From positions 704,001-768,000 of the forward strand of contig OZ257142.1 of assembly GCA_965279035.1 (NCBI GenBank): a stretch of 64,000 nt of DNA, read 5' to 3'. Made by a program: the position numbers and the translations under genes. The stretch comes from Bacteroidia bacterium (GTDB lineage Bacteria > Bacteroidota > Bacteroidia > M30B66). Each line of letters starts with the position of its first letter. Position 1 is the first letter of the stretch. Of this stretch, positions 25,901 to 40,391 are shown piece by piece. A model generated the notes under the pieces. It had not been told where the DNA came from. It searched no databases and worked only from the letters and a program-made list of their open reading frames with translations.

Positions 25901-28900
25901 CCATGTACAAGTCGCTTGCTGGTGACCAATGATACACTGAATTCACATCAATATTTGATATCGTAAGCGCTTGTGAAGAATTGGATGCATTTATTGTTGC
26001 CGACGAAGGATTTACAACTGGGCGTGGTTCAATAATAATTGTTTGATCGTAAGTTGCATCCGCACATGGAGAGTTTGATACGGTCATTCGCAAAGTAACT
26101 ATTGTTCCAGCATCATTTGGTGCAGGTGAATATGTTGGACTTGTAGAGCTTGTATTAATTAAAGCTCCATTTCCTGTAAGACGTGTCCAGTTTATCGTTC
26201 CATTGGTAGCTGTAATACCAGTTAATGTCACAAATCCATTTTCACATGTAATAAATGTTCCTGAACCAGAAGCCGTTGGGCTCTGACTAATACTCACAGC
26301 ATTTATAGCAGAAGTTGTATTACAACCATTCGTATTACTAACAATTAACGTATAGTTTCCACTAGTTGAAGCTGTGTAATTGTTGGATGTTGCTAAAGGA
26401 ATATTGACTCCTCCTAATTGCCATTGGAAGCCGCTTATCGAACCGCTACCAGCACTTGAGCCAATTGCACCTAAGACAGTTCCAGAGGAAGCGCAACCCG
26501 AAAGAGAACCACTTATCGTAGAAATTGGTTTTGCATAAACTGTAGCTATTACTGGAGTTCTAGTTGTGCTTTCGCAACCACTTGTGGTATTATAGATTGT
26601 GACATAATATGTTGCAGTGCTTGAAATTACAGTTGTTGTATAAGAACTACCAGTAGATTGTAATAAGGTTCCTCCACTTGAAGCATCGTACCATTTATAG
26701 TCTTCACCTGCAATTGCATCTGTTGCGTCAAGAAGAAGTGATCCAGTTCCGCAAATTTGTGATGGAATTCCTGTTGGAGCCGAAGGTATCGCCGGGTCGA
26801 ACAATGAAATGCTTCCTGAAACTGGATATGGATCAGAATTACATCCGTTGATGCTTACTATGATATTATCATAATCACCTTGTCCTAATCCGCTAAGTTG
26901 AAGAACACCACTTCCATTGCTTGTTATCGATCCGGCATTGATTGTTGCGCCACTGTTTTTCTTGTACGAAACAGAATAAGAAGTTGAATTTGATAAACCA
27001 CTTAGTTGAATAGTTCCATTTGTACCAGAACAGGTTGTTGGATCGATTGCAATAAAAGAGGAGATAACTGGTATTGCAGGATCTGAAAGTACAAGGTTTC
27101 CTGATAATGGATATGCAGGAGAATAGCAACCTAATGCATTGGTTACAACAAAGGTATTATATGAACCTTCTGTCAAGCCTGAAACGACTAATGCTCCCGA
27201 ACCATTTGTAGTTAAACTACCTGCATTAACAGGCGTTACACCTTTGATATACGTTAGAGTATAGCTTGTACTAACCGACAATCCATTTAAGGTAATACTA
27301 CCATTTGAACCACCACAAGTACTTGGATTCACTGGTGAGTATGATCCAATAGACGGGCTTGATGGCGGCACTAAAGCTATAACTCCAGAAGATGGAGTAG
27401 GAGAAGAATTACAACCTGACAGAGACACTACGATGTTATCATAATTGCCTTCTGTTAGATTATTTATTATTAATGATCCACCTCCATTTGTAAGTATGCT
27501 TCCAGCATTTGTATTCACAGTGTTTCTGTCATAATTCACTGTATACGAAGTTGAAGCCAACAGGCCGTTTAATTGGATACTTCCATCATTTCCAGCACAT
27601 GTAGTTGGATTGGTAGTAGAAACACCACTTACCGAAGGTGCTGCTGGATCGTTAAGGGCAATAAAGCCTGAACTTGGATATGCTGGTGTTGATGAACATC
27701 CGGCTAGAGTTAGAACGATATTATCGTATGCACCATCACCTAAACCAGTAATGATTAATGAACCACCGACATTTGTTGAAATGCTTCCTGCGTTCACATT
27801 CGGAGGACCATTTTTCTGATATAGTACAGTATAGCTTGTTGATGGGACTAATCCATTCAACGTAATTGTACCATTACTTCCAGCACAGGTAGTAGGATTT
27901 GTTTTAGAATCAGAGGTGATGATTGGATTTTTGAAAGTAACCACTATCGGTTTTACATCATTTCCACAAGTATTCGCATATTTTACATAAATGGTTGAAG
28001 CTACACTTACAGCAGAAGGATCGCCCGTATATGACGTTGTTGCACCTAGATTAGTCCAATAGGTTATTCCAGAAACAAGAACACCATTTGTAACATTCAC
28101 AATTCCTGATGCAGTTATATCAACAGTTCCAGGAGAACATCCTGCTGGAGGATTGGTTACAGAAATGATTGGTGAAGGTTCCAATATTTCAAATGGAGTT
28201 GTTTCACTACCAACAATTGCAGGTGTGCTTGATATGACACGAATCTTATAACCTAAACCAGCAAGTGCTCCGGCAGGTATTACACCCGGACCAGCTGTTA
28301 TTGTTCCACTAGCAGTGCTGGTTAGTGTTCCAATGGTGACAGGGCTCGCAAAACTTCCACTAGCATCTGAAAGTTGAGCAGTAAAAATATTTCCACCAGT
28401 ATAGGATCCAGTAACAGTATAGGAAACACTAATAGCAGAACCTGGACATTGTGTAACAGCTACATTGCTTGTAGTGATAGTATTACAAGAACTCACAACA
28501 ACAGCAACAGCATCAGAGTTTCTAGAACAGCTTCCGCTGGTTAATTTAACAGTATAAAAATAGTTCCCCGCTGTAGCAGTAGATGGACTATAGGTAGATG
28601 ATGTTTGTCCACCAATATTACTGTTACTTGGAGGCCAAGCGTATGTTTGCCATTGATACGTTGGAGAACTCATTCCTCCTGAATTCACTGCAGTAAGAGT
28701 AAGAGGACTTCCTGTACATACGTTTTGTTGTCCAGTTGGAGTTATAGTTGGTTTTGTAGTTGGAGTATAAACAAATATTCTTCCTGTAACTGGCCATGAA
28801 GATGCGCAATTCCATCCTCCAGCTAATGACATTCCATCGGTGTTTGAAACTCCAGCTGTTGTACTTGCCCATGGCCCTTCGCAACCGTTTGTTCTATTTA

Positions 28901-31823
28901 AATAATCACTAGTAAGCGATCCCCTAATTCCAGTTTGAGCAGAAAATACACCTAAACCACCTACAAATGTTAAATCGTAAGGAGAGCACCGATAAAAGAA
29001 TTCAATTTTATTGGTTCCTTCATAAAGACGTATTTGAAAATCACTTTGAGCACCTGGGCTACCAACGCCAACTTTATCAACACCAACAGAAGCCCATTCA
29101 ATGACACAAGTCCGAGAACCTGCTGTACCAAATGTTACATACTTAAGAGATGCTCCGGTAAATGAACCCATATCGGTTCCGTAAACAGAGGCTATTCCAT
29201 CTACAGTTCCTGATTGTCCAGCTGTTGAGCTAATAGGATTATATTGTGTTGAAGAACATGTTCCAGTACCAAACCAAATAAAACCATTCGAACTTATGCC
29301 CATTGTGGAGTACGGAGCATCGTTAAAATTAAATGTAAAACCAATGCTTTTATTGGTATATACTTGATCATCAGCCCATATTAATGTTGTTGGTGTTCCT
29401 AAGCTTGCAGCCGTTGCATAACTTCCTGTTGGACCATATGAATAGGCATAACCACAACTAACTGTTCCTGGGGAACCAGAACTAACATTTACGGTTACAG
29501 TTCCAGTTCTGGAACATCCTGAAGGATCGCTTGCTGTTACTGTGTAGGTTGCAGTTGATAGTGTAGTTGAATAAACCGTTTGTGCAAAATCACCAACATT
29601 ATAAGGAGTGGTTAATCCAGCATCAATATACAAGGCAGTTACTGGTGACCAAGAATAAGAAATTGCTCCATTGCTAGATGTTGTTGAAGCAGTTAATGTA
29701 GAGGTTTGACCTAGACCAATGGTCGAAGGACTTGCACTAGCAGTTACTACTGCCGGATTTACTGTAATTGTTGAATTGGCAGTTCCTACGCACGTATTAG
29801 CTGTTGCAGTAAGAGTATATGTTGTAGTAGTACTAGGATTTGCAGAAGGATTTGAAATGTTAGTTGCACTTAAGCCTGTTGCTGGAGACCAAGACCATGT
29901 GGTTGCTCCAGCAGCTGCATTGGCTCCTGTTAAAGCAATACTGTTTGGTGAACCTGTATTACAAATGCTTGAATTATAGGGTGCCGAACCATTTATCGTT
30001 ACACTTGGAGTGGGATTAACCGTTACATCTAAAGGCGTTGTTTGAATAGCGGTAGCTCCTCCATTTGTACATGTAATTAAACATTTATAGTAATAATGAA
30101 CCGCAGTTAAACCTGCATTTGTTAAAGAAGCAGTAGTATAATTAGCTGTATTTGCACCTGAACCTCCTACAACATTGGAATACGGACCTCCTGAAGAAGT
30201 AGCAACTTGCCATTGAAGATTAATGCCAGATACACCCGTAGTGTATCCAGTTGCATACATAGTTGTAGTGGCACTAGGGCATGCTGAAGCGGTAGTATTG
30301 GTTCCACTACTACCAGCATAAACATTTCCAGCTGTAGGTGTTCCAGAACAAGCCGATCCGGATATATTTACTCTATAATCTTCAACCTCACCAGCTCCTC
30401 CATTTGCTGCCGTGGTTCCAAAAGTAGCACAGGCTTGAGCATTCGTAATAGTATTAGTAGTTCCAAATCGGCCAATTACCCGCATGGATGTTGTGCCAGT
30501 TAAAGCTGTTCCAGGAACTGTAAATGCAATACTTCCTGTAGCATTAGGAGCCACTGCTGCCGCAAAAGCTCCAATAAATTCAGTAGTTTCAAACACCCCA
30601 TTTTGATTATAATCAATCCAAGCAGCTGCTCTGTGGTTTGATAAAGCTTGACTACCAACTTTTACTTGCAATGTATAACTTGCACTGAGAGCTAAATCAG
30701 CAACTTGAGAAGTATATAATGAATAATAAGGTGAAACTGAATTGACTGTTGTTACATTATTCAATGCTGTTGGACTACCATTTAGAATCACTTGTGTAAT
30801 TCCTCTTGTTCCACCATTTGCTGCATTAAATGTGGGAGTACAATAACAATTTAGAAATGAATTTAAGGAAACGGTTGAGATTTGAGAAGCTGTTGTTTGA
30901 CCAGATGCTGTACAAGTTACATTACATCTATAATATGTAGTTGTATAAGGCAAAGATGCTCCGGTTGGTGTTGTAAATGTGGCCGTTGTTGCACCTGAAC
31001 CACCTGTAACATTTACATAAGGACCACCGATAACGTTTGATTCTTGCCATTGATAAGTATAACCAGATGCATTTAATGTTAAAGCGATAGATGTTGTTGA
31101 AACGGCGCAAATGCTTGTTGATGCTGGTGTAACAACTAAAGACGAAGGTGTTCCTGAACAAGCAACTCCAGGTGTTATTGTAACTTTAAAATCTTTAAAC
31201 TCACCATAATATAAGCCTTGTCCAGCACAAGGTGCAATAGCAGGAATACTTCCAAATCCACCTCCCATTACTGCAATCCTCATTTTAACATCTCCCGATA
31301 GACCTGCACCTACAGTAAAAGAAGGTGAGGTAACATTAAGAGAACCCGGATTGGGAACTGTTATTCCCATTATATTTTCTCCAGCATCGGTAAATAAACC
31401 ATTGTTGTTCCAATCTATCCATGCATAAAAACATGTGTAATAACTTGCAGATGATGCTGCAGAGCTTGACATGTTAAATGTATAGGCTTGTCCTGCCGTT
31501 ACGTTACCTGTTACTGATGAATATAAGTTAGTATAAGGATTTGCACCAGCTGTTCCACCAGAATAAAATGTCGTGGAATTGAATTTTGCAGTAGTTATGA
31601 AAATATTGCCTGCAGCACCATTAGAGGTTCCTCCAAAAGCAGGAGAGGGAGTACATTGTGCCTTGCTTTCATTTGAATAAAAAATGCTAAAAACTAAAAT
31701 GAGAAAGTAAAAAATTAACTTAAAGTAGTTTGAAGCTATGATTGAAAACTGTTTAAAGAAATTCAATTCAGAAACATTCTTATTAATTGAATGATCAAGC
31801 ATATTTGTGTAGCTGTTTTTCAT
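22998..31823 (-). CDS. Giant (~2940 aa) T9SS-secreted surface protein/adhesin: 2x GEVED, Ig-like/SprB-like repeats, PKD, type A CTD
   Basis: WIDWNNNG..GEFKDF and WIDYNQNG..GEVEDY; four ~95 aa (N/D)P(T/S)TC repeats; YTWNFGD..HAY PKD; AFPNPA..DLKAGTY..VVVTH CTD; start uncertain (31823 or 31871). Confidence 0.9.
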   Translation of the reverse strand: MKNSYTNMLDHSINKNVSELNFFKQFSIIASNYFKLIFYFLILVFSIFYSNESKAQCTPSPAFGGTSNGAAGNIFITTAKFNSTTFYSGGTAGANPYTNLYSSVTGNVTAGQAYTFNMSSSAASSASYYTCFYAWIDWNNNGLFTDAGENIMGITVPNPGSLNVTSPSFTVGAGLSGDVKMRIAVMGGGFGSIPAIAPCAGQGLYYGEFKDFKVTITPGVACSGTPSSLVVTPASTSICAVSTTSIALTLNASGYTYQWQESNVIGGPYVNVTGGSGATTATFTTPTGASLPYTTTYYRCNVTCTASGQTTASQISTVSLNSFLNCYCTPTFNAANGGTRGITQVILNGSPTALNNVTTVNSVSPYYSLYTSQVADLALSASYTLQVKVGSQALSNHRAAAWIDYNQNGVFETTEFIGAFAAAVAPNATGSIAFTVPGTALTGTTSMRVIGRFGTTNTITNAQACATFGTTAANGGAGEVEDYRVNISGSACSGTPTAGNVYAGSSGTNTTASACPSATTTMYATGYTTGVSGINLQWQVATSSGGPYSNVVGGSGANTANYTTASLTNAGLTAVHYYYKCLITCTNGGATAIQTTPLDVTVNPTPSVTINGSAPYNSSICNTGSPNSIALTGANAAAGATTWSWSPATGLSATNISNPSANPSTTTTYTLTATANTCVGTANSTITVNPAVVTASASPSTIGLGQTSTLTASTTSSNGAISYSWSPVTALYIDAGLTTPYNVGDFAQTVYSTTLSTATYTVTASDPSGCSRTGTVTVNVSSGSPGTVSCGYAYSYGPTGSYATAASLGTPTTLIWADDQVYTNKSIGFTFNFNDAPYSTMGISSNGFIWFGTGTCSSTQYNPISSTAGQSGTVDGIASVYGTDMGSFTGASLKYVTFGTAGSRTCVIEWASVGVDKVGVGSPGAQSDFQIRLYEGTNKIEFFYRCSPYDLTFVGGLGVFSAQTGIRGSLTSDYLNRTNGCEGPWASTTAGVSNTDGMSLAGGWNCASSWPVTGRIFVYTPTTKPTITPTGQQNVCTGSPLTLTAVNSGGMSSPTYQWQTYAWPPSNSNIGGQTSSTYSPSTATAGNYFYTVKLTSGSCSRNSDAVAVVVSSCNTITTSNVAVTQCPGSAISVSYTVTGSYTGGNIFTAQLSDASGSFASPVTIGTLTSTASGTITAGPGVIPAGALAGLGYKIRVISSTPAIVGSETTPFEILEPSPIISVTNPPAGCSPGTVDITASGIVNVTNGVLVSGITYWTNLGATTSYTGDPSAVSVASTIYVKYANTCGNDVKPIVVTFKNPIITSDSKTNPTTCAGSNGTITLNGLVPSTSYTVLYQKNGPPNVNAGSISTNVGGSLIITGLGDGAYDNIVLTLAGCSSTPAYPSSGFIALNDPAAPSVSGVSTTNPTTCAGNDGSIQLNGLLASTSYTVNYDRNTVNTNAGSILTNGGGSLIINNLTEGNYDNIVVSLSGCNSSPTPSSGVIALVPPSSPSIGSYSPVNPSTCGGSNGSITLNGLSVSTSYTLTYIKGVTPVNAGSLTTNGSGALVVSGLTEGSYNTFVVTNALGCYSPAYPLSGNLVLSDPAIPVISSFIAIDPTTCSGTNGTIQLSGLSNSTSYSVSYKKNSGATINAGSITSNGSGVLQLSGLGQGDYDNIIVSINGCNSDPYPVSGSISLFDPAIPSAPTGIPSQICGTGSLLLDATDAIAGEDYKWYDASSGGTLLQSTGSSYTTTVISSTATYYVTIYNTTSGCESTTRTPVIATVYAKPISTISGSLSGCASSGTVLGAIGSSAGSGSISGFQWQLGGVNIPLATSNNYTASTSGNYTLIVSNTNGCNTTSAINAVSISQSPTASGSGTFITCENGFVTLTGITATNGTINWTRLTGNGALINTSSTSPTYSPAPNDAGTIVTLRMTVSNSPCADATYDQTIIIEPRPVVNPSSATINASNSSQALTISNIDVNSVYHWSPASDLYMDASLTIPYVLNTHSTTVYAAPFSTVVYHVTATSSVTSCTSGATAVLVNVDPALTNDICLADQSQGLVTVTNTPVFVLRSLAGATASPGAACVGIDKDIWFRSVVPSNGEIHVITQEHNNPIASLNITSALVQIFTATTCSTGLSQVACNSGGAAANMAYAAASGLTPGTTVYIRLARTTAGNAAPAQYLKMAVTNGLIWTGAIDNNFSNPANWVGGDATALTTPSASSTVIIPTLASNVYPTISGTQNAHGIEFVHTLANGFTPSVLIFAGSELRLTASSTYKSFITRSGNYANIVATAPKISGQGTLRFNEGGLNSGAVQTLIHFYGVVAVRAGVSVTSNGNMSFENNSVLLSGGVATGDLTKNYSGNVIGNIIYKRNGSIYGGYNYWGSPVTGASTNSLQSTFGNNIYAYDNMSAGGSIQGAWGNPITTPVAMLPGKGYIQTYAGNGNVTFTGTPNESTYNFPVTVNVGNNFNLLSNPYPSALSYNLLRSTNSNLGSVYLWSFAGSFPFTSNSYVVLSGLGVLSGNPVPGFNSAEISAGQGFFAQVSGAGTVSFNSNQRVPNYPGNSTQFLDNDSPYSILRLRLTNPNQISFDAVVGFGETGTDGVDFGFDSPRMPSSDVLELYTMLGDGQFTTQYLPVLNAARVIDLGVVMATAGTYSFDLNLFDNFDPTVRVFLEDRKTSEFHNLNAASNYSFTNDPAFVGTRFRLHFMAPFAYSSTGSCTNENTGKVILSNPNQNYPMQARIKNTAGEVVMAKDSVMAEYIFTGLAPQSYSMETSYDGTEFNSTLIDIQGFEAFENAGITSSASSISLDKAIVEFSTVQIAGAEYTWNFGDQTSVVAGANVSHAYMQTGIYTVTLSISNGGCTSTSSYEIAITDDVTGIANVTDGNQLIAFPNPANELVKILRSDSRQAVLELTDITGKVVLRKTLTNTVETISTSDLKAGTYLAVIRDNKTTRTIRVVVTH

Positions 31824-32227
31824 AGACTGTAGCTTTTTTGATATGTGTTCAGATGAATGTCCCATCTCCATATCTTCAAACTTACACTATATAAAACCCA
31901 TTAAAAACGCTCATGCTTCATCTTATCTCAGTCATTGCTGAATACAATTTGAGCTAGATTTTCGAGATAAAAATGCAATCACTAAGATGAATGTTGTATC
32001 AATTAAAATAGAATTCAAACAATCATAAATTGCTATGTCTCAATAATAGTATAAGAGATAGGTAGTTTTACTATAAAATATTACCGTTAAATAACCCTAG
32101 TGAAATCTGTGAAATAAGATTTTAAGTTGATTGTTTAACTATCTTTTAATGTTCGAATAAATAAGATGAACAATATCAAGTAAACCTTTTTATCGTGCTT
32201 TTTTAAGCAAACTCTTACAAGCTAATC

Positions 32228-32746
32228 TCAAAAATGGGATTTTGTATCATTTGAAATAGCCGCAAAAAATCGATTATGCCAACTCTCAGATGCAGGAATA
32301 AGCCAACTGTTTTTTAATTCTTTGCCACTAAACACCAAATTATTAAAAACTAATGTGTCAGAATCTAGTTGTCCATTCGATGCAAACGTCTCAAATTCAG
32401 CTATAGGGTTCAACTGTAACTGACCTTGCTCATCTAACCAAGCGACCTGCATACGATCTAAAAAATCGATATGAAGGTCATTTCCCAATGCTGAAATCCA
32501 ATGAACCGATTTGTCGATCGAACAACCACTTGCTTTGGCTTGATCTTCATCAACCATTACAATGACAAACAAATTTTTGAACACCAAAACTTCTGCACGT
32601 AAAGGTTTGCCATGTGCTGCCCAATTGGCAACAAACGTTTCCCCAGAAATCTGGATTAATTGAGCTTCATCGTCCGATAAAATCCGGTTTGCTTGATACA
32701 CCCAAATTCTATCTGTATCCTGAATGTGTTCGAAAGTCTTTTCCAT
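32228..32746 (-). CDS. Conserved Bacteroidota hypothetical protein (WxYQ..WxAHG..ASGCSID family)
   Basis: RIWVYQANR, WAAHGKPL, ASGCSIDKS, VFNNLV..W motifs; likely ATG at 32746. Confidence 0.8.
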   Translation of the reverse strand: MEKTFEHIQDTDRIWVYQANRILSDDEAQLIQISGETFVANWAAHGKPLRAEVLVFKNLFVIVMVDEDQAKASGCSIDKSVHWISALGNDLHIDFLDRMQVAWLDEQGQLQLNPIAEFETFASNGQLDSDTLVFNNLVFSGKELKNSWLIPASESWHNRFFAAISNDTKSHF

Positions 32747-32750
32747 GGTA

Positions 32751-33536
32751 TTATAAATCAGCAGCTTGAGCAATTAATTCAGCAATATCTAGAACACTAA
32801 CGCTTGCCTCTTTTTCAGCATGTTTCACACCGTCGGTCATCATCGTATTGCAAAATGGACAACCAACAGCTATAATTGATGATTGAGTAGCAAGTGCCTC
32901 TTCGGATCGTTCTATATTGACTTCTTTGTTTCCTGGTTCAGCTTCTTTGAACATTTGTCCACCACCTGCACCACAACACAATCCTTTTGTTTTACAACGT
33001 TTCATCTCCACCAATTCGGCATCGAGTTTCCCGAGTACCTCACGTGGAGCTTCGTATTCTCCGTTTGCGCGACCTAAATAACAAGGATCGTGAAACGTAA
33101 TTTTCTTCCCCTTGAACGAACCGCCTTCTACTTTCAAACGTCCATCTTTCATCAAACTCTCGATCAATTGAGAATGATGCACCACATCGTAATGACCTCC
33201 TAATTCAGGATACTCGTTTTTAAGTGTATTGAAACAATGCGGACAAGCTGTTACAATCTGCTTCACTTCATAACCATTCAAAACAGCGATATTTTGCATA
33301 GCCTGCATCTGAAACAGAAATTCGTTTCCAGCACGTTTAGCCGGATCGCCTGTACAGCTTTCTTCTGAGCCAAGTACAGCAAATTTCACATCGGCTGCTT
33401 GAAGCAATTTCGCTACAGCTTTAGTTACTTTTTTTGCACGGTCATCAAAACTACCAGCACAACCAACCCAGAATAAAATTTCAGGAACCTCACCATTTGC
33501 AAGGTATTGTGCCATCGTCTTTACATTTAATTCCAT
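32751..33536 (-). CDS. (Fe-S)-binding protein with two CCG domains (HdrB/GlpC/FadF C-terminal-like)
   Basis: FWVGC, ESCTGD, TACPHC, HDPCYLGR, CCGAGGG, GCPFC. Confidence 0.93.
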   Translation of the reverse strand: MELNVKTMAQYLANGEVPEILFWVGCAGSFDDRAKKVTKAVAKLLQAADVKFAVLGSEESCTGDPAKRAGNEFLFQMQAMQNIAVLNGYEVKQIVTACPHCFNTLKNEYPELGGHYDVVHHSQLIESLMKDGRLKVEGGSFKGKKITFHDPCYLGRANGEYEAPREVLGKLDAELVEMKRCKTKGLCCGAGGGQMFKEAEPGNKEVNIERSEEALATQSSIIAVGCPFCNTMMTDGVKHAEKEASVSVLDIAELIAQAADL

Positions 33537-33545
33537 GGTGATTTC

Positions 33546-33615
33546 AATTACGAATTAAAAATTACGAATTACGAATTACGAATTACGAATTACGAATTAC
33601 GAATTACGAATTACG
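33546..33615 (+). repeat. Heptamer tandem array (AATTACG)x10: 9 perfect units, 1 degenerate
   Basis: AATTACG, AATTAAA, then 8 consecutive perfect AATTACG (33560-33615). Confidence 0.98.
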
Positions 33616-33635
33616 AATGTATTTGTATTAAATAG

Positions 33636-33992
33636 TTAATTGGGGAGTTTGTTTTTGGTTGTTCGTTGTATAGAGCCAATAATACGAAGAATCTCATCTA
33701 TTTGAAGGAGTAATTCTTCTGAATGTGTTGGTTCAATTGTATTTGAATCTCTTAGTAATCGAATCCAAAATTTAGTTTCTCTCGCTTCTTTATATGCTAT
33801 GCTGATTTTGCTCAAAAAATCTTTTCTCGACTGACCTCCAATAGCTTCTTCCACATTCGCACCAATTGAAGTCCCTGATTTTAGTAGCTGTCGTGATAAA
33901 ATATACTCTTTATTCTTGTGCATTTGCCTTGAAATATTAATGATCTTTAGAGCAAAGTCATAGGTTTTTTGTTGAATCAAATTCTCTTTCAT
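33636..33992 (-). CDS. Four helix bundle protein (23S rRNA IVP / TIGR02436 family, Avd-like fold)
   Basis: K.YDFALKII..LSRQLLKSGTSIGANVEEA..QSRKDFLSKISIAYKEARETKFWIRLL. Confidence 0.95.
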   Translation of the reverse strand: MKENLIQQKTYDFALKIINISRQMHKNKEYILSRQLLKSGTSIGANVEEAIGGQSRKDFLSKISIAYKEARETKFWIRLLRDSNTIEPTHSEELLLQIDEILRIIGSIQRTTKNKLPN

Positions 33993-34064
33993 AATACTAG
34001 TTTAGGTTAATAGCTATTTTTTAATTTATATAATGTTTTCATTCCCTACTTCACAATCAAATTT

Positions 34065-34158
34065 ATTCATTCCTAATTTCTCATTCGTAATTGACCATTC
34101 GTAATTAGTAATTGATCATTATTGACCATTCGTAATTCGTAATTGACAATTCGTAATT
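34065..34158 (-). repeat. Degenerate heptamer array (CGTAATT/GACCATT on +), reverse complement of the 33546-33615 array
   Basis: About 13 NNNNATT units with 5 perfect CGTAATT (34086, 34100, 34131, 34138, 34152) interleaved with gaccatt/gatcatt/gacaatt/agtaatt. Confidence 0.93.
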
Positions 34159-34163
34159 AATTA

Positions 34164-35477
34164 TCATTCGTCTTTCCAATTCAAACGATCCGATGGAGAA
34201 AACTGCCAAGGAGCACCATTGTTCTCAATATTGGTAAACATTGAACTTAAAGCTGCAGGAGGAGCACTTTCTTCCATCACCAGTTGTCGACGTAAATCAA
34301 TGATAATACTGAGCGGATCAATATTCACCGGACATGCTTCTGTACACGCATTACACGTAGTACATGCCCATAATTCTTCCGGTTGAATATAATCGTGCAA
34401 CAAACTTTTTCCATCTTCCTTGAATTCACCTTTGTTGGCATCGATGTTTTTACTCACTTCTTCCAAACGATCACGTGTTTTCATCATGATCGCTCGTGGA
34501 CTTAACAACTTACCAGTTTGGTTTGCCGGACATTCCGATGTACATCGTCCACACTCAGTACATGTATAAGCATCGAGCAAGCTTTTCCAAGTTAAGTCTT
34601 GAACGTCTTTCGCTCCAAATTTCACTGGTCCATCCAACTCAACAGGAACAGCCGAAGGATCCATCATCAACTTCACTTCATTGGTAACAGCAGCCATATT
34701 GGTAAAACGACCTTTATTTTCGAGGTTGGAATACCAAACATTGGGAAAAGCTAAAATGATATGGAAGTGTTTGGAATAAGGGAGATAATTTAAGAAAGCA
34801 AGAATTCCAAGAATGTGAAACCACCAAGCGCCACGTTCATACGCTATAAGTGAGTGAGTTGACCAAGAGTCGAACAATCCAGTAATAAGCGAACTAACTG
34901 GAAAAGAGCCTGCTTGCATATAATGCTCAGTGGCTTCAGGGCGTAACTGCAAAACTTGATCTGCCGCATTCATAGTTAAAAAGGCAGTCATCAATAAGAC
35001 CTCAATCAGTAAGATTGCATTTGCATCGGATCTCGGCCAACCATTTAACTCGTTTTGACGGAAGCGTTTTATGTAAATAATATTCCTTCGGATGAAGAAG
35101 ATAATTACAGAAACAAGAACACCTAGTGCTAAGAATTCAAACGAACCAATTAGGAAATCATAAAAACCTCCTAAGAGCGGAGCAAATAGTCGATGCGTTC
35201 CGAAAATCCCATCGAGAATTATCTCCAGAACTTCTAAATTGATAATGACAAATCCTGCATAAACCAAAATATGCAATATCCCAGCAACAGGTTTCACAAC
35301 CATTTTACTTTGCCCCAAAGCAACACGTGCCATAAGCTTCCAACGCTCCGGTTTACGGTCGCTACGATCGAGCTTTCTTCCTAAACGAATGTTGCGAATG
35401 ATCTTTCGAACGTTGAATGTAAAAAGCCCTGCACCTGCACTAAATACTAGAAGAAATAATATGTTTGGAAGTCCCAT
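34164..35477 (-). CDS. Membrane (Fe-S)-binding oxidoreductase subunit (FadF/Hdr-like N-terminal half)
   Basis: TM helices, YLPYSKHFH, CTECGRCTSECP and CTTCNACTEACP ferredoxin motifs; likely ATG at 35477. Confidence 0.92.
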   Translation of the reverse strand: MGLPNILFLLVFSAGAGLFTFNVRKIIRNIRLGRKLDRSDRKPERWKLMARVALGQSKMVVKPVAGILHILVYAGFVIINLEVLEIILDGIFGTHRLFAPLLGGFYDFLIGSFEFLALGVLVSVIIFFIRRNIIYIKRFRQNELNGWPRSDANAILLIEVLLMTAFLTMNAADQVLQLRPEATEHYMQAGSFPVSSLITGLFDSWSTHSLIAYERGAWWFHILGILAFLNYLPYSKHFHIILAFPNVWYSNLENKGRFTNMAAVTNEVKLMMDPSAVPVELDGPVKFGAKDVQDLTWKSLLDAYTCTECGRCTSECPANQTGKLLSPRAIMMKTRDRLEEVSKNIDANKGEFKEDGKSLLHDYIQPEELWACTTCNACTEACPVNIDPLSIIIDLRRQLVMEESAPPAALSSMFTNIENNGAPWQFSPSDRLNWKDE

Positions 35478-35531
35478 AAGCGATTCTGGTTGGGTCAACA
35501 AATATAAAGGCAGATGGTTTCCTGCTATTTA

Positions 35532-36521
35532 TTATTTAGGGGATTTTCCCTTTTTAGGTGTTTTTTCTTTTTTTCCAAAAACCGAAAAATGAACATACCT
35601 ATTCGGGTGAGCTTTCATATCCTCTAACAATAAACTCAAGTTTCTTGAACTATGATCGAGATTTACATAAAGTGAATCGTCTGTAGCCAATTTACCTAAA
35701 GTTCCTTGTCCACTTTCGACATTCTGCAACACCTTATTTAAACTGGAAATGGTGCCTTGTAAATCGGTTAAGGTTTGCTTCACATTGCTTTTAGCCACAT
35801 CATCCGATATGCGATCCATATTGGTAAAAACATGGGAAAGCTTCTCATTGTTGTTTTTCAAATTATCAGTAATAGACGCCACATTGCTCAATATGGAGCT
35901 CAGTCTATGACGTTCGTTTGTCACTAATAAATCAAACTCATTTACTGTATGCTCAAATCGTTTGATCGACGTATTTACACTTTCGAAACTACTAATCAGA
36001 CCATCTTGAGTTTTTCGGTTGAATACATTATTGAAACCAGTAAGCACCGAATCAACTGAACCAGCCAATGCTTCAATTTGAGCTTTCAAAGGAAGAATTG
36101 CTTTCTTAATTTCATCAGTAATTCCTGCATCACGAACAGCAATCAAGGTATCACCTCGCTTTGCTAAGACAGTCGATTTTCCCAATGTTAGCTCCAAGGT
36201 TCTCGTTCCTAAAAGATCCTGAACAATATGAGCTTCCGAATCTTTAGGTATGTTGAGGTCATTGTTATCAATCAAGAATTTTACAAGGACTTTGTATGAA
36301 CCTTCGGACAAAAATCCAACTTGATCAACGATTCCAACTTGAAAGCCATTCACCTGTACACGAGCCGATGGCATGAGTTGATCAACATTGTCAAACACAG
36401 CGTAATATGAACGTGAAGGTGAAAAAAGGTTTTTACCTTTTAAAAAGTTAAAACCAAAATAGAGGAGTACGATACCCAGTGTTACGACGATACCAACACG
36501 TACTTCACGGGATACTTGCAT
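35532..36521 (-). CDS. MlaD/MCE family protein
   Basis: SREVRVG..FNFLKG, V.VNGFQVG.V, LLG, helical region, GTLGKL..DDSLY..LL.D.K.HP.RYV.FSVFG. Confidence 0.92.
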   Translation of the reverse strand: MQVSREVRVGIVVTLGIVLLYFGFNFLKGKNLFSPSRSYYAVFDNVDQLMPSARVQVNGFQVGIVDQVGFLSEGSYKVLVKFLIDNNDLNIPKDSEAHIVQDLLGTRTLELTLGKSTVLAKRGDTLIAVRDAGITDEIKKAILPLKAQIEALAGSVDSVLTGFNNVFNRKTQDGLISSFESVNTSIKRFEHTVNEFDLLVTNERHRLSSILSNVASITDNLKNNNEKLSHVFTNMDRISDDVAKSNVKQTLTDLQGTISSLNKVLQNVESGQGTLGKLATDDSLYVNLDHSSRNLSLLLEDMKAHPNRYVHFSVFGKKEKTPKKGKSPK

Positions 36522-36538
36522 GTTTTTTTAAATTAAAA

Positions 36539-37747
36539 TTAGGGTTGAATTGATTGTGCTTCCTGTAATGTAATGCGTTGATTGTTTTGAAATGCAACCA
36601 CAAAGGCATCACCGAATCCGGCCTTCTTCAATTCGGCGAGCAATTTAAGCGCTTCTTCCTGTTTCTCACAGTGCCCAACAGTATATTTCCAGGATTTATT
36701 GAATTTATATTCCCATACATCGGTTCGTCCTTTGAAACGTGCCGATTTCAATGAGATTTTTTCGGGTGATGTATACACTTGAATTCTGTAAACAATTCCA
36801 GAATTATCAGCTGTTAAAGCTGGATTTACTTCTTGTTTTTCGGGGCTTTTTTCAGGAACAACTTTATGCTCAATTGGTTTTTCCACTTTTACTTGAACAT
36901 CCTCTTCCTCATTGGGAAATTGCAAGTCGTGCCTTTCGTTAGTGCCATCAATCCAACTTTTATAGGTATCCAAAGCCTTTAAAATGGAATTGGCAATCTT
37001 TTGTTGACCAGCTGCCGATTTCAAATATTTCTCTTCTTCCCCATTGGTTAAAAATCCCGTTTCGATCAACACACTCGGCATCGTTGTGCGATATAAAACG
37101 AGAAAGCCAGCTTGCTTAACTCCCCGATTATGGCGCGCTCCATAGGTTTTAAATTCGTGTTGAAGTCGATCGGCGAAATACAGACTTTGATCTAAAAATG
37201 CATTCTGATACAAGGAAAAAATAATATTTGCCTCAGGACTGTTAGGATCAAAACCGTCGTATTTTTTTTGGTAATTATCTTCCTGAAGGATAACCGCATT
37301 TTCGCGTTTTGCCACATTGAGGTTATCGGTGCTTTTATGAAGACCCATCACGAATGTTTCTGCGCCAAAGGCTGTTTTTGGTCCACTGTTGCAATGGATG
37401 CAAATAAACAAATCTGCTTTATTCTCATTCGCAATCTGTGCACGTCGATACAGTTCAACAAACACATCTGTCTTCCGCGTAAAGATCACTTTTACATCGG
37501 GAAAGTTAGCTTCAATGAGCTTTCCTAATTTTAAGGAAACTGCTAAAGCCACATTTTTTTCATAAGCTCCTGCTCCATGACATCCGCTATCATGTCCACC
37601 ATGACCAGGATCTATCACAATGGTTCTCAAACCATTTTCACGATGAATGTTTTGATCAGCTTGAATTGATGGCAGAAATAACACTGTAATCCCTGCAAGT
37701 AGCAGAGTAAACAGAAGAATAAAACGTTTTTTTAGCAGGTATTTCAT
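36539..37747 (-). CDS. N-acetylmuramoyl-L-alanine amidase (Amidase_3) with C-terminal SPOR-like domain
   Basis: IDPGHGGHD, EKNVAL, FICIHCN, PSVLIETGF; C-terminal YRIQV..GFGDAFVVAF. Confidence 0.94.
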   Translation of the reverse strand: MKYLLKKRFILLFTLLLAGITVLFLPSIQADQNIHRENGLRTIVIDPGHGGHDSGCHGAGAYEKNVALAVSLKLGKLIEANFPDVKVIFTRKTDVFVELYRRAQIANENKADLFICIHCNSGPKTAFGAETFVMGLHKSTDNLNVAKRENAVILQEDNYQKKYDGFDPNSPEANIIFSLYQNAFLDQSLYFADRLQHEFKTYGARHNRGVKQAGFLVLYRTTMPSVLIETGFLTNGEEEKYLKSAAGQQKIANSILKALDTYKSWIDGTNERHDLQFPNEEEDVQVKVEKPIEHKVVPEKSPEKQEVNPALTADNSGIVYRIQVYTSPEKISLKSARFKGRTDVWEYKFNKSWKYTVGHCEKQEEALKLLAELKKAGFGDAFVVAFQNNQRITLQEAQSIQP

Positions 37748-37787
37748 GAGACTGATACAGCTTTGAAACGAGGTTGCAACGAAATAA

Positions 37788-37830
37788 ATTAGTTTTGCAC
37801 TCGTTTCGAAACGGATTTTACAAAACTAAT
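37788..37830. promoter_or_regulatory. Face-to-face -7 boxes (TAGTTTTG on both strands) flanking palindrome CGTTTCGAAACG
   Basis: attagttttg (37788-37797) / caaaactaat (37821-37830); 12 bp perfect palindrome at 37802-37813. Confidence 0.6.
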
Positions 37831-37841
37831 CGGCAGCAACC

Positions 37842-40391
37842 TTGCGATTACGTATAGCGCTACGGCACTTAACAACAGTTTTATTCACAGTTGTGGCTTT
37901 TGCCAGTTTGCTTGTGCAATCTGCTGTTTTGAACGCGCAAGTGCCCGATTCATTGCCTGTTGCAGATACTTCCAAGAAAGTTATTGCGCTCCCGCCAGGC
38001 TCTTTACCCCCTTCTCCCGATGCGCTTGATTCAAAAGTTGAGTACAAAGCCCGCGATTCAATGCGCTTTGATTTGAAGCAAAAGAAAATCTTTTTGTATG
38101 GTGCTGCCGATGTTAAATACGATCAAATTCACCTAACTGCCGATTACATCGAAATCAATTGGGGAACAAATGTCGTTCATGCCGAAGGTCGTCCCGATTC
38201 GACGGGGAAAATTGTTGGACATCCTGTTTTTGATGAAGGCACTCAAACGTTCGATGCCGAAAGGATGGACTATAATTTCAAAACGAAAAAGGGAAGAATC
38301 TCAGGAATCTTTACCAAACAGGGCGATGGGTATTTACATGGTGATCAAGTAAAGAAGAATGAAAAAGATCAGTTTTTCATCCGCAACGGGAAATACACCA
38401 CGTGCAATCTCCCCGATCATCCCCACTTTTATATCAATGCTACCAAAATCAAAGTTTTACCCAACGATAAAATTGTTTCTGGGCCAGCCAATCTTTGGAT
38501 AGAAGATGTCCCAACACCTTTAGCTGTTCCTTTTGGAATTTTTCCCAACACAACTAAACGCCAATCAGGTGTGATTTTTCCAACGTATGGTGAATCGCCC
38601 GGACTTGGTTTTTACCTTCAAGAAGGCGGTTATTATTTTGGAATCAACGATTATATCGATGCTTCAATACGAGGCAATATTTATTCAAGAGGTTCTTGGG
38701 GACTAAGTGCCGGAACATCCTATAATTACCGCTATCATTTTAATGGAAGTATGGATTTGAGGTTTTCGAAAATACTTCGGGGCGATCCTGATTTACTTGG
38801 TTCCTCAATCAATAAAGACTTTTTCATAAACTGGAAACACAGTCAAGATCCTAAATCCAGACCGAATTCTCGTTTCTCTGCTTCGGTTCAAGCAGGAACA
38901 AGTAATTACAATAAACTCAATTCTTTTAATACAAATAACATTGTAGCTAATACATTTCAATCGAGTATTTCGTATGCTAAAACCTTTGCGAACACCCCGT
39001 TCAATATGGTCATTAGCGCAGGTCATAGTCAGAATACGGCAACTAAAATCATAACGATTTCTGCACCTGAGCTTCAATTGAATATGAATCGCTATTATCC
39101 TTTAAAGCGGAAAAATCCGATTGGTGAACAACGTTGGTACGAAAAGCTTGGTGTAACGTATACCATGCAAAGCAAAAACACCATATCTCAAGCAGATTCA
39201 CTTTATGGAAGGCCTGGCTGGACTCAGAAATTCAACAATGGTGTGCAACACCAAATTCCTATTTCAACCTCCGTTCAATTTCTAAAATTCTTCACCTTTT
39301 CTCCTGGAATTAATTACACCGAACGATGGTACTTTAATACCATTGAAAAATACTACAATGAAAAAACGGGAACAGTTGCTGAAGACACCATTCGTGGATT
39401 CAAATCAACACGCGAATGGAACGCCAATGCGAACATCAGTACTCGTTTATATGGATTTCTGAAATTGGGAAAAAATACTGTTCGTAATGTAATGACTCCT
39501 CAAGTGAGCTTTCGGTATCAACCCGATTTCAGCACACGGAAATATGGATTTTATGGACCCAATGGAACAGTAGGATATTATTCTCCTTATGATCATGGAA
39601 TTTATGGACAGCCTTCAGTCGGCCGACAAGGAACCGTTGGATTAAGTTTAAACAACAATTTAGAAGCGAAAGTCCGTTCGAAACGAGATACCACAGGTAC
39701 AGGTTTGAAAAAAATTATTCTCTTTGATGCATTCAACTTTTCAACGGCATACAACCTTGCAGCCGATTCTTTGAACTGGCAAAATTTAGCCATCAATGCA
39801 AGAACTAAACTCTTTAAAAAACTCGACGTTGTTTACAGCAGCACACACGATTTTTATGCGTACGACACCATCGCGAAAACACGCATTAATACGTTTGAAT
39901 ATGATAAAACGGGACATCTTTTTAGAACAGTAAATACCAATTTGTCTTTAACTACAACTCTCGCCTCTGCCAAAAAACAAAAGTTGAGTTCTAAAGCAGG
40001 AACCGATGCAGAGCGAGCAGATCTTTCGCGTAACCCCAATAGTTATGTCGATTTTACTATTCCTTGGTCGCTAAATGCAGGCTTTGTTTTTAGTAAAACA
40101 GTTTCTGGTAACAATACAATTATCAATGAAGTATTGAATGTAAGTGGAGATTTAAATCTAACCTCGAAATGGAAAATTGGATTTAGTACAGGTTATGATT
40201 TTTACAAAAAGAAAGTCTCTCTTACCACAGTGGATATTTTCCGCGATTTACATTGCTGGGAGATGCATTTTAATTGGATTCCTTTTGGATTTAGACAGAG
40301 TTATAATTTCACCATCAATGTGAAATCATCCATGCTTCAGGATTTAAAAGTAAATCGAAGAAGACAATGGTATGATGTGCAAAACCAATAA
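37842..40391 (+). CDS. lptD: Putative LPS assembly protein LptD (Bacteroidota type)
   Basis: Y.ARDS..F, LYG.A.V.Y, YTTC..PHF, beta-barrel region, RDLHCWEM.F.WIPFG..SY.F. Confidence 0.9.
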   Translation: MRLRIALRHLTTVLFTVVAFASLLVQSAVLNAQVPDSLPVADTSKKVIALPPGSLPPSPDALDSKVEYKARDSMRFDLKQKKIFLYGAADVKYDQIHLTADYIEINWGTNVVHAEGRPDSTGKIVGHPVFDEGTQTFDAERMDYNFKTKKGRISGIFTKQGDGYLHGDQVKKNEKDQFFIRNGKYTTCNLPDHPHFYINATKIKVLPNDKIVSGPANLWIEDVPTPLAVPFGIFPNTTKRQSGVIFPTYGESPGLGFYLQEGGYYFGINDYIDASIRGNIYSRGSWGLSAGTSYNYRYHFNGSMDLRFSKILRGDPDLLGSSINKDFFINWKHSQDPKSRPNSRFSASVQAGTSNYNKLNSFNTNNIVANTFQSSISYAKTFANTPFNMVISAGHSQNTATKIITISAPELQLNMNRYYPLKRKNPIGEQRWYEKLGVTYTMQSKNTISQADSLYGRPGWTQKFNNGVQHQIPISTSVQFLKFFTFSPGINYTERWYFNTIEKYYNEKTGTVAEDTIRGFKSTREWNANANISTRLYGFLKLGKNTVRNVMTPQVSFRYQPDFSTRKYGFYGPNGTVGYYSPYDHGIYGQPSVGRQGTVGLSLNNNLEAKVRSKRDTTGTGLKKIILFDAFNFSTAYNLAADSLNWQNLAINARTKLFKKLDVVYSSTHDFYAYDTIAKTRINTFEYDKTGHLFRTVNTNLSLTTTLASAKKQKLSSKAGTDAERADLSRNPNSYVDFTIPWSLNAGFVFSKTVSGNNTIINEVLNVSGDLNLTSKWKIGFSTGYDFYKKKVSLTTVDIFRDLHCWEMHFNWIPFGFRQSYNFTINVKSSMLQDLKVNRRRQWYDVQNQ

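Follow-up and report, generated by a model that had tools for sequence, protein, structure and literature searches.

Genes of the PF05635/TIGR02436 family, which encode small four-helix-bundle proteins, sit between inverted arrays of short tandem repeats, and this arm-gene-arm layout, present in at least five bacterial phyla, characterizes the protein family as a whole. We are highly confident of both the architecture and its generality. The layout is illustrated here by a block found at an Fe-S operon junction in a 64-kb stretch of DNA (the window, that is, the whole of the stretch analysed). This block is best explained as one of a class of intergenic hairpins that consist of inverted 7-nt arrays, in this case with a gene in the loop.

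On the - strand, the block runs from the stop of the upstream Fe-S gene through 5 nt, the left array, the 118-aa gene, the right array and 9 nt (GAAATCACC) to the ATG of the downstream gene, and this order, as given in the preliminary description, was borne out by the sequence, the ORFs and the TRF analysis (Table 1). The upstream ORF stops at a TGA that is followed by TAA, and the left-arm units start 5 nt on; its product had HdrC/SdhB-like NCBIfam matches, every one below cut-off. The right array, separated by 17 nt from the end of the 118-aa ORF, was recognized by TRF with a period of 7, 93% matches and a score of 132. In the left arm, TRF detected 4.4 heptamers at 34128-34158 (75% matches) and a 10-nt period at 34111-34130, the units growing more degenerate from 34158 towards ~34053. 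The ten right-hand units that had been reported are thus there, while the left array of ~13 degenerate heptamers is more degenerate than stated. The spacer that follows contains GAAGTAGGGAATGAAA, which by eye approximates the complement of the array in a gene-less junction of the closest relative (L001, see below). The 14-mer AATTACGAATTACG, with one mismatch at most, occurs nine times in the window, all within the two arrays (expected, 0.04), and no further period-7 arrays were found elsewhere in it. The GC content was 0.25-0.35 across the block versus 0.38-0.45 in the flanks, which confirms that the block is AT-rich.

Table 1. The block and the operon genes on either side of it (positions in the 64-kb window).
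Feature	Position	Strand	Evidence
Upstream operon gene, 445-aa membrane protein with 4Fe-4S dicluster domain	35501-34164	-	ORF, Pfam Fer4_8/Fer4_9 and related
5' (left) arm, degenerate AATTACG-type array with 10-nt variants (GGTCAATTAC...)	34158-34053	-	Sequence, TRF, inverted pairs, fold
60-nt A+T-rich spacer, left arm to ATG	33993-34052	-	Sequence
118-aa four-helix-bundle gene (PF05635 23S_rRNA_IVP; TIGR02436), hairpin loop	33992-33636	-	ORF, Pfam, NCBIfam
3' (right) arm, (CGTAATT) x 10.4, near-perfect	33618-33546	-	TRF
Downstream operon gene, 261-aa protein with two CCG cysteine-rich domains	33536-32751	-	ORF, Pfam, NCBIfam

Two inverted pairings of the arms were found, one of 32 nt at 91% (33588-33619 with 34127-34158) and an alternative one of 68 nt at 72% (33553-33620 with 34053-34120). 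The "~70 bp duplex" proposed at the outset is therefore correct as to the pairing, but takes the form of an interrupted stem. Folding of the - strand RNA likewise paired the arms, as predicted, with an MFE of -132.3 kcal/mol versus -106.7 +/- 5.0 kcal/mol for shuffled sequences (z -5.1). An Rfam scan of the block disclosed no rRNA; its one match, between the repeat and a snoRNA model, was sub-threshold (28.1 versus 95 bits), and we took it as chance. The terminator scan yielded no terminators, the sigma-70 promoter scan stayed at chance level with a tool that lacks Bacteroidota promoters, and PADLOC gave no match at the locus.

The 118-aa protein is a full-length member of PF05635 (E 1.3e-26; 93.3 bits, cut-off 33.8; residues 3-106 on positions 2-105 of the 106 of the profile) and of TIGR02436 (E 1.7e-29; 102.2 bits, cut-off 24), above the curated cut-offs of both, and its closest solved structure was PDB 2rld_A (E 9.3e-25). 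The protein is not known to carry a catalytic motif. The only other Pfam family matched was bAvd (30.1 bits), under its cut-off of 40, and DivGenRetAVD (33.4 bits) was likewise under its cut-off of 80. Compared with its two closest orthologues (L111 and L112), the protein displayed dN/dS values of 0.06-0.10, indicating strong purifying selection. The neighbours scanned with Pfam (eight long ORFs of 30000-40391, with 22998-31871 outside the scan) encode Fe-S, CCG, MlaD, amidase and LptD proteins; none of them is a transposase or reverse transcriptase gene, which upholds the earlier remark on this point, and no template/variable repeat pair was apparent near the 118-aa gene. Genes of the family were present in 26 of 28 Flavobacteriales-type genomes, at 0-13 copies per genome.

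The genomes of five relatives contained 30 PF05635 matches, and by eye nearly every copy was placed between a stop and a start with inverted short arrays on both sides, the repeat unit differing from copy to copy. We scored the arms by local (Smith-Waterman, SW) alignment of the upstream 120 nt with the reverse complement of the downstream 120 nt, using as a control 596 ORFs, some of them neighbours of elements (95th percentile, 22; 99th percentile, 31). For 27 PF05635 copies of the five genomes and the window, the median score was 35 versus 16 in the controls (Mann-Whitney p 3e-10), and 21 of them were above the 95th and 14 above the 99th control percentile. Two further genomes (G029 and G010) displayed SW >22 in 15/19 copies; in three low-copy genomes (G007, G032 and G009) this was so for one copy of four, the other three scoring 22 or less. 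With the addition of 80 metagenome loci, the best among 525 relatives of one protein, 75 of 103 elements reached an SW score of at least 24 and 28 were without significant arms; in this set, the median arm was 29 bp long, ended 15 nt before the ATG and restarted 8 nt after the stop. The period was 7 in 80 of the 86 strong flank arrays, and at least one strong array was present in 63/99 elements (36 had none) versus 50/412 control ORFs, in which the arrays were mostly of period 5. Most assessable elements (56/66) shared the orientation of the two ORFs enclosing them, from which they were separated by gaps with medians of 51 and 45 nt, and the host operons with inserts include thiolase, sdhA/sdhB, suf, acc, cas2/cas1 and hsdS/hsdR. 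The arms also depicted a base polarity, with more G than C in the 5' arm of 55/66 elements and more C than G in the 3' arm of 47/68.

A tblastn search against plasmids yielded 31 records, and we inspected 17 that were picked for diversity. These belonged to Cyanobacteriota, Spirochaetota, Bacillota and Chloroflexota, the hosts being Nostoc, Anabaena, Aulosira, Dolichospermum, Euhalothece, Gloeocapsa, Planktothrix, Pseudanabaena, Treponema, Monoglobus and Chlorohelix. Flanking period-7 arrays with SW >22 were present in all 17 copies, and with SW >31 in 13 of them. The insertion sites include cas2/cas1 (on the opposite strand), hsdS/hsdR, a helicase/methylase junction and a junction between drmD and an MmeI-type enzyme gene, and the AATTACG unit of the window was also found in a Nostoc plasmid (C052) and in Dolichospermum. 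Paired inverted arrays, which the first description led one to expect at other family members, are thus present in the sets of 27, 19 and 17 copies alike.

We compared the same junction in relatives using 80 loci fetched by the downstream protein, 78 of them with both flanking genes. The junction was 170 nt or shorter in 46/78. In the closest relative, L001 (flanking proteins 94% and 87% identical), it was 122 nt long and the gene was absent. This junction opens with the same AATTACGAATTGT.AATTACGAATG as the left arm of the window and ends much like the right arm of the metagenome contig L112, stubs of both arms being kept, and its centre consists of an array, (CCCTTTCTACTTTC) x 4, that is complementary to the arm family of L085, a PF05635 copy of the same genome. 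The empty site sought was thus found as arm stubs without a gene, and these results support the proposal of a compact arm-gene-inverted-arm unit that occupies a gene junction and is absent from relatives. Concerning the 32 larger gaps, the ORFs of nine loci were scanned with Pfam and the other 23 judged by eye. Gaps of 425-1365 nt were rejected as insertions, since eight of the nine scanned loci hold a HAD-like phosphatase, a host gene, and the 242-nt gap of L059 was an alignment artefact. Three of the nine (L016, L033 and L028) did carry PF05635 genes at this junction; these were distant from that of the window (32% identity, or undetected by tblastn) and had other repeat units, so that the Fe-S junction has been filled several times. 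The orthologous element was found at the same junction in two metagenome contigs, L111 (93% protein identity) and L112 (84-85%). Their arms keep the CGTAATT core and are otherwise greatly different, L111 having a 75-nt tandem duplication that takes in the left arm together with the last part of the upstream gene, and L112 five copies of a 40-nt higher-order repeat plus an extra inner array. By eye, no target-site duplication was visible on comparing the window, L111 and L112 with the empty site of L001, in agreement with what had been noted from the window, and the arm ends were variable.

To what extent gene and arms travel together was assessed by correlating protein identity with the 6-mer similarity of the arms (Mantel rho 0.31, a value reached in 0/500 permutations); the arm Jaccard similarity rose from 0.033 to 0.089 with protein identity. 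The anticipated covariation of repeat unit with protein clade is therefore present but modest. Copies within one genome were only ~25-29% identical and had different arms. Pairs above 80% identity mostly share their flanking genes and thus represent orthologous sites, pairs at 76-79%, such as L142/L157, occupy different junctions and have arms of one family, and in the pair L165/L190 (89%) the downstream flank, the one covered by the comparison, differs. Judging from these sequences, the element does relocate, but rarely, and no recent bursts were seen. At 40-47% protein identity the repeat units differ widely; for this reason, we rejected a fixed protein-to-unit code, and the covariation may be plain co-inheritance.

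Arrays and hairpins of the same kind occur in these genomes away from the genes. In G001, an incomplete MAG, AATTACG x 3 (two mismatches at most) matched 20 places at eight loci, versus none in G002-G005; the gene was present at none of the eight, two of which were gene-less hairpins, and none of the three PF05635 matches of G001 had AATTACG arms. The complete genome G005 contained 108 pattern matches of the arm family of PF05635 copy L083 at ~25 loci and 50 of that of copy L087 at ~9 loci, together with recurrent gene-less composites of 150-200 nt in which outer inverted arms of the L093 family enclose an L083-family array, and its array families outnumber its five PF05635 matches. In Flavobacterium G029, gene-less GTTTCAG/CTGAAAC hairpins were found at no fewer than three successive junctions of one operon, which includes an amidotransferase-like gene (trpG-like by eye), and TRF detected further arrays of this family ~1.6 kb downstream. 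Among the PF05635 copies of G029, L316 is flanked by the GTTTCAG family, L314 by AAGAAGC and L313 by the TTTAATCG family, the last of which also forms a gene-less hairpin at the Fe-S junction (L077). Several of these and the foregoing comparisons of flanks were made by eye. Sharing of 9-mers between arrays and arms was more frequent within genomes (23/221) than between them (53/1219; OR 2.6, p 8e-4), but the same-genome match is due largely to one family (10/13 arrays in G029) and is noisy in the other genomes (5/9 in G010, 2/6 in G007 and 0/2 in G009). Samples of 200 kb contained 0, 1, 3 and 1 period-7 arrays in genomes with 0, 0, 1 and 2 copies of the gene, and 8, 13, 2 and 1 in genomes with 13, 12, 12 and 11 copies, so that the trend of array density with copy number in these eight samples is only loose.

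For the genome from which the window comes, the copy number of the AATTACG array was estimated from contig depth alone. The summed contig depth over the right arm was ~24 times that of the neighbouring DNA, four contigs of the one source sample break inside the right arm at ~33589, and other contigs of similar depth from this sample also bear such arrays. A series of "joint" contig rows was considered as an excised form and rejected, because they derive from other array-bearing contigs. A flanked gene plus dispersed gene-less repeats in the same genome, the combination typical of REPIN-RAYT systems, was found in relatives, and in the window's own genome the dispersed repeats are represented by the rise in depth and the other array-bearing contigs. 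Similarly, multi-copy, intergenic, tandem 7-nt units of the STRR type were observed. The heptamers had been described as the arms of a mobile cassette; they do form arms, but this description is too narrow, since the unit families also make up gene-less arrays and hairpins.

With regard to the level at which the arms are kept complementary, Watson-Crick pairs accounted for 2119 of 2402 columns in the aligned arms. The mismatches showed no sense-strand G:U excess (46 sense G:U-compatible versus 70 antisense-compatible, A:C-type), and the + strand of the block folded as well as the - strand (-139.4 versus -132.3 kcal/mol). On these two grounds, arm complementarity may be maintained on DNA.

Several known systems resemble the block in part. 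The 23S rRNA intervening sequences (IVSs) with an S23p ORF (Coxiella, Leptospira and others) bear the same protein family in the loop and, like the block, are bordered by complementary ends that pair into a long stem around the ORF. In Coxiella, RNase III cuts the 28-bp stem, and the S23p ATG is preceded by three tandem GACAGAT heptamers, the number of which varies among strains (PMC4990558), a further likeness to the window. Unlike these IVSs, the block is at an mRNA operon junction and not in helix 25 or 45, both of its arms are themselves heptamer arrays, and RNase III cutting, which has been shown for rRNA IVSs, is a proposal for the block. Short versions of the rRNA IVSs that lack an ORF also exist. 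From this comparison, the S23p-bearing 23S IVSs look like the same kind of element inserted in an rRNA helix. The likeness to REP/REPIN-RAYT systems lies in a usually single-copy gene flanked by inverted copies of a short repeat, of which further, gene-less copies are dispersed between genes of the same genome, in paralogues with their own repeat families, and in within-genome copies that diverged anciently. RAYTs are HUH/Y1 transposase-like enzymes; unlike them, the protein described here is a small four-helix bundle with no known catalytic site and not an IS200/IS605-like HUH tyrosine transposase (PF05635 and bAvd being its only Pfam matches), and unlike REP sequences the repeats are tandem 7-mers and not one fixed palindrome. 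A one-gene-one-repeat-family relation is partly supported for the heptamer elements. The Avd protein of diversity-generating retroelements is pentameric, basic and nucleic-acid binding. It has a homologous four-helix-bundle fold (PMC10053308), but, unlike in those retroelements, neither a reverse transcriptase nor an apparent template/variable repeat pair accompanies the 118-aa gene in the neighbourhood scanned.

The tandem 7-nt intergenic units are shared with the STRR of cyanobacteria, the GGGAATC repeats of Xanthomonas and the TAACTGA repeats of Beggiatoaceae. Heptamer repeats are described as intergenic and transcribed; many lie near start or stop codons, and convergent pairs are frequent (70 such pairs in X. 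campestris) (PMC4692102, PMC4679880, PMC6344855). According to a Nostoc preprint, they influence how neighbouring genes are expressed, and a binding partner yet to be identified is postulated there (10.1101/2022.06.06.494920). What sets the window-type arrays apart from the openly accessible accounts of these repeats is that they are tied to PF05635/TIGR02436 genes. This link is already visible in the data published for X. campestris, where GGGAATC array no. 15, at a distance of 6 nt from bccP, extends over the start of XCC0516 (PMC4692102 supplement), the family member whose pentameric structure has been solved (as cited in PMC4990558 and PMC10053308). In a literature search that had subscription journals and family descriptions outside its scope, we found no published link between these genes and heptamer arrays, and no work describing them as hairpin inserts in mRNA operons.

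We lean, if slightly, towards the view that the block is an IVS-like and REP/RAYT-like element whose protein reads or maintains the 7-nt arrays. The PF05635 gene would be transcribed together with the host Fe-S operon, the arms would pair, and RNase III would cut the stem as in the rRNA IVSs, which would free a stem-capped mRNA for the protein and leave the flanking cistrons usable. The protein, by homology a pentameric nucleic-acid-binding ring, would recognise the arrays in a 7-nt register, both in cis and on the gene-less copies, and would maintain, spread or regulate its own repeat family as a RAYT does with REP sequences. As neither a transposase nor a target-site duplication is visible, movement from site to site would most likely come about through recombination among arrays belonging to one family. 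For the RNase III step, proposed because of the rRNA IVS precedent, we consider the chances evenly balanced; that the protein binds its own arrays is, in our view, slightly less probable than that. That the period stays constant when the unit sequence is free suggests that the agent which makes or reads the arrays has a 7-nt ruler, for which the protein is the obvious candidate.

The chief alternative, which we judge unlikely, is a passive association: in A+T-rich DNA between genes, slippage of the polymerase and template switching would generate and lengthen the arrays, a small selfish or neutral ORF would survive only in such "safe" hairpins and be shuffled among them by homologous recombination, and the protein would have nothing to do with the arrays. 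Arrays are indeed common without the gene, and they change fast, as the window, L111 and L112 encode proteins 84-93% identical with very different arm lengths and higher-order repeats. The near-perfect Watson-Crick arms are what DNA-level quasi-palindrome correction would produce, polymerase slippage has been proposed for the heptamer excess (cited in PMC4692102), and, as noted above, no protein-to-unit code holds at 40-47% identity. However, slippage offers no reason why inverted pairs should abut starts and stops (at a median of 15 and 8 nt), or why the layout should be common to 17/17 copies in four other phyla. The strong purifying selection on the protein also argues against a passive association, as does the finding that two genomes free of the gene had just 0 and 1 period-7 arrays per 200 kb.

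It is improbable that the block is a host regulatory device, that is, a REP-like element of intra-operon RNA processing or stability, or an attenuator, with the small protein as its regulator. Although the exact placement between stop and start, the gene-less hairpins at operon junctions of relatives and the effects of heptamers on neighbouring genes in Nostoc (10.1101/2022.06.06.494920) would suit such a role, no terminator-like sites were found and the gene is absent from the junction in most relatives. Moreover, similar inserts are carried by unrelated operons (thiolase, sdhA/sdhB, suf, cas2/cas1 and hsdS/hsdR), which argues against an operon-specific role. Very improbable, too, is a DNA transposon or MITE-like unit with the arrays as terminal inverted repeats, a transposase acting in trans and the PF05635 gene as cargo. 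The inverted ends, the related proteins (76-79%, possibly up to 89% identical) at different junctions with the same arm family, as in L142/L157, and the nesting of arrays within the loops of other hairpins would fit it, but the neighbourhood is without a transposase, no target-site duplication is visible by eye in the window, L111 or L112 relative to L001, the ~25-29% identity of within-genome copies speaks against recent bursts, and the arms vary in length with no fixed terminus. Finally, the weak similarity to bAvd and DivGenRetAVD would suggest an Avd accessory protein of a diversity-generating or other retroelement, a reading we discount almost entirely given the scores below cut-off, the lack of a reverse transcriptase in the scanned neighbourhood and of an apparent template/variable repeat pair, and the absence of a PADLOC match.

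With respect to the openly accessible literature, what is new here is the systematic link of PF05635/TIGR02436 genes to heptamer arrays, both parts being known separately. This link joins two puzzles, the function of a widespread small protein family and the meaning of tandem heptamer repeats, and accounts for the fact that these genes separate operon genes which would otherwise be neighbours (acc, sdh, suf, cas and restriction-modification). It also affects annotation, operon prediction and, because contigs break in the arrays, assembly. A wider proposal, which we regard as possible though on balance doubtful, is that the intergenic heptamer repeats of prokaryotes (STRR, GGGAATC, TAACTGA, AATTACG and many others) have their missing partners in the TIGR02436/PF05635 proteins: each paralogue would be a non-enzymatic pentameric ring that reads nucleic acid 7 nt at a time, would be encoded within a hairpin of its own repeat family and would bind, process or propagate the gene-less copies of that family, with the rRNA IVSs as the special case in which the element landed in an rRNA helix. 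If this were true, the family would account for the fact that 7, a prime, is the commonest intergenic tandem period in bacteria.

Taken over all the elements, the 60 nt on either side of the four-helix-bundle gene showed a base-composition bias, G exceeding C in the 5' arm of 55 of 66 elements and C exceeding G in the 3' arm of 47 of 68. Since the inverted repeat is identical on both strands, this polarity belongs to the hairpin as such. The arms themselves differed greatly in the two metagenome contigs that carry the orthologous element at the same junction. In L111, about 75 nt were duplicated in tandem (L111:2300-2460), namely the left arm and, with it, the 3' end of the upstream Fe-S gene (its final codons and its stop). 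In L112, the AATTACG units were organized in a 40-nt higher-order repeat of approximately five copies (L112:2170-2470). Between this repeat and the gene lay an array oriented like the right arm, and because of this extra array two alternative arm pairings are possible.

Within the left arm of the window, the octamer TAAATTTG resembles the Bacteroidota -7 promoter motif, and it was not conserved in L111. An Rfam match of the heptamer array (33529-33602, - strand) to a eukaryotic snoRNA model scored 28.1 bits, below the threshold of 95, and was regarded as a low-complexity chance match. In many relatives, the junction of the two Fe-S genes was occupied by a gene for a HAD-like phosphatase of 132-166 aa, and the lineage of the window was devoid of this gene at the junction. 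The window also contains a long ORF of 2957 aa, the end of which, judged by eye, resembles a type IX secretion sorting domain.

Location of features in the window and in relatives' loci holding the Fe-S gene junction
Feature	Location	Strand	Remarks
TAAATTTG	window 34058-34065	-	66 nt upstream of the ATG of the four-helix-bundle gene
HAD-like phosphatase gene in junction gap	L003, L008, L015, L016, L020, L028, L063, L076		LNS2/Acid_phosphat_B matches
2957-aa ORF	window 22998-31871	-	many repeated Ser/Thr/Gly-rich modules

Members of the family were also found on plasmids. In Nostoc and Anabaena plasmids (L338 and L339), the four-helix-bundle gene with its GTAAAAA arrays occupied the cas2-cas1 interval on the opposite strand, and further copies of the gene were present in restriction-modification and DISARM-like operons (L342, L343 and L345). 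PMC4679880 describes 29 close paralogues of BOGUAY_0693, a hypothetical protein that reportedly has the same unusual distribution among taxa as the TAACTGA heptamer repeats.

Heptamer hairpins also occurred without the gene. In a Flavobacterium genome (G029:C5, approximately 381.9-383.2 kb; L290:1900-3170), gene-less GTTTCAG/CTGAAAC hairpins were read at three successive gene junctions of an operon, one gene of which is amidotransferase-like and, judged by eye, trpG-like. Moreover, the complete genome of a relative (G005) carried recurrent composite elements of 150-200 nt (L212-L222), in which an ATGAGAT/ATGAGTT array of a single orientation was enclosed by outer inverted arms of the AGTAGTGAGAAAAT type, as if one array family had been inserted into the loops of another.
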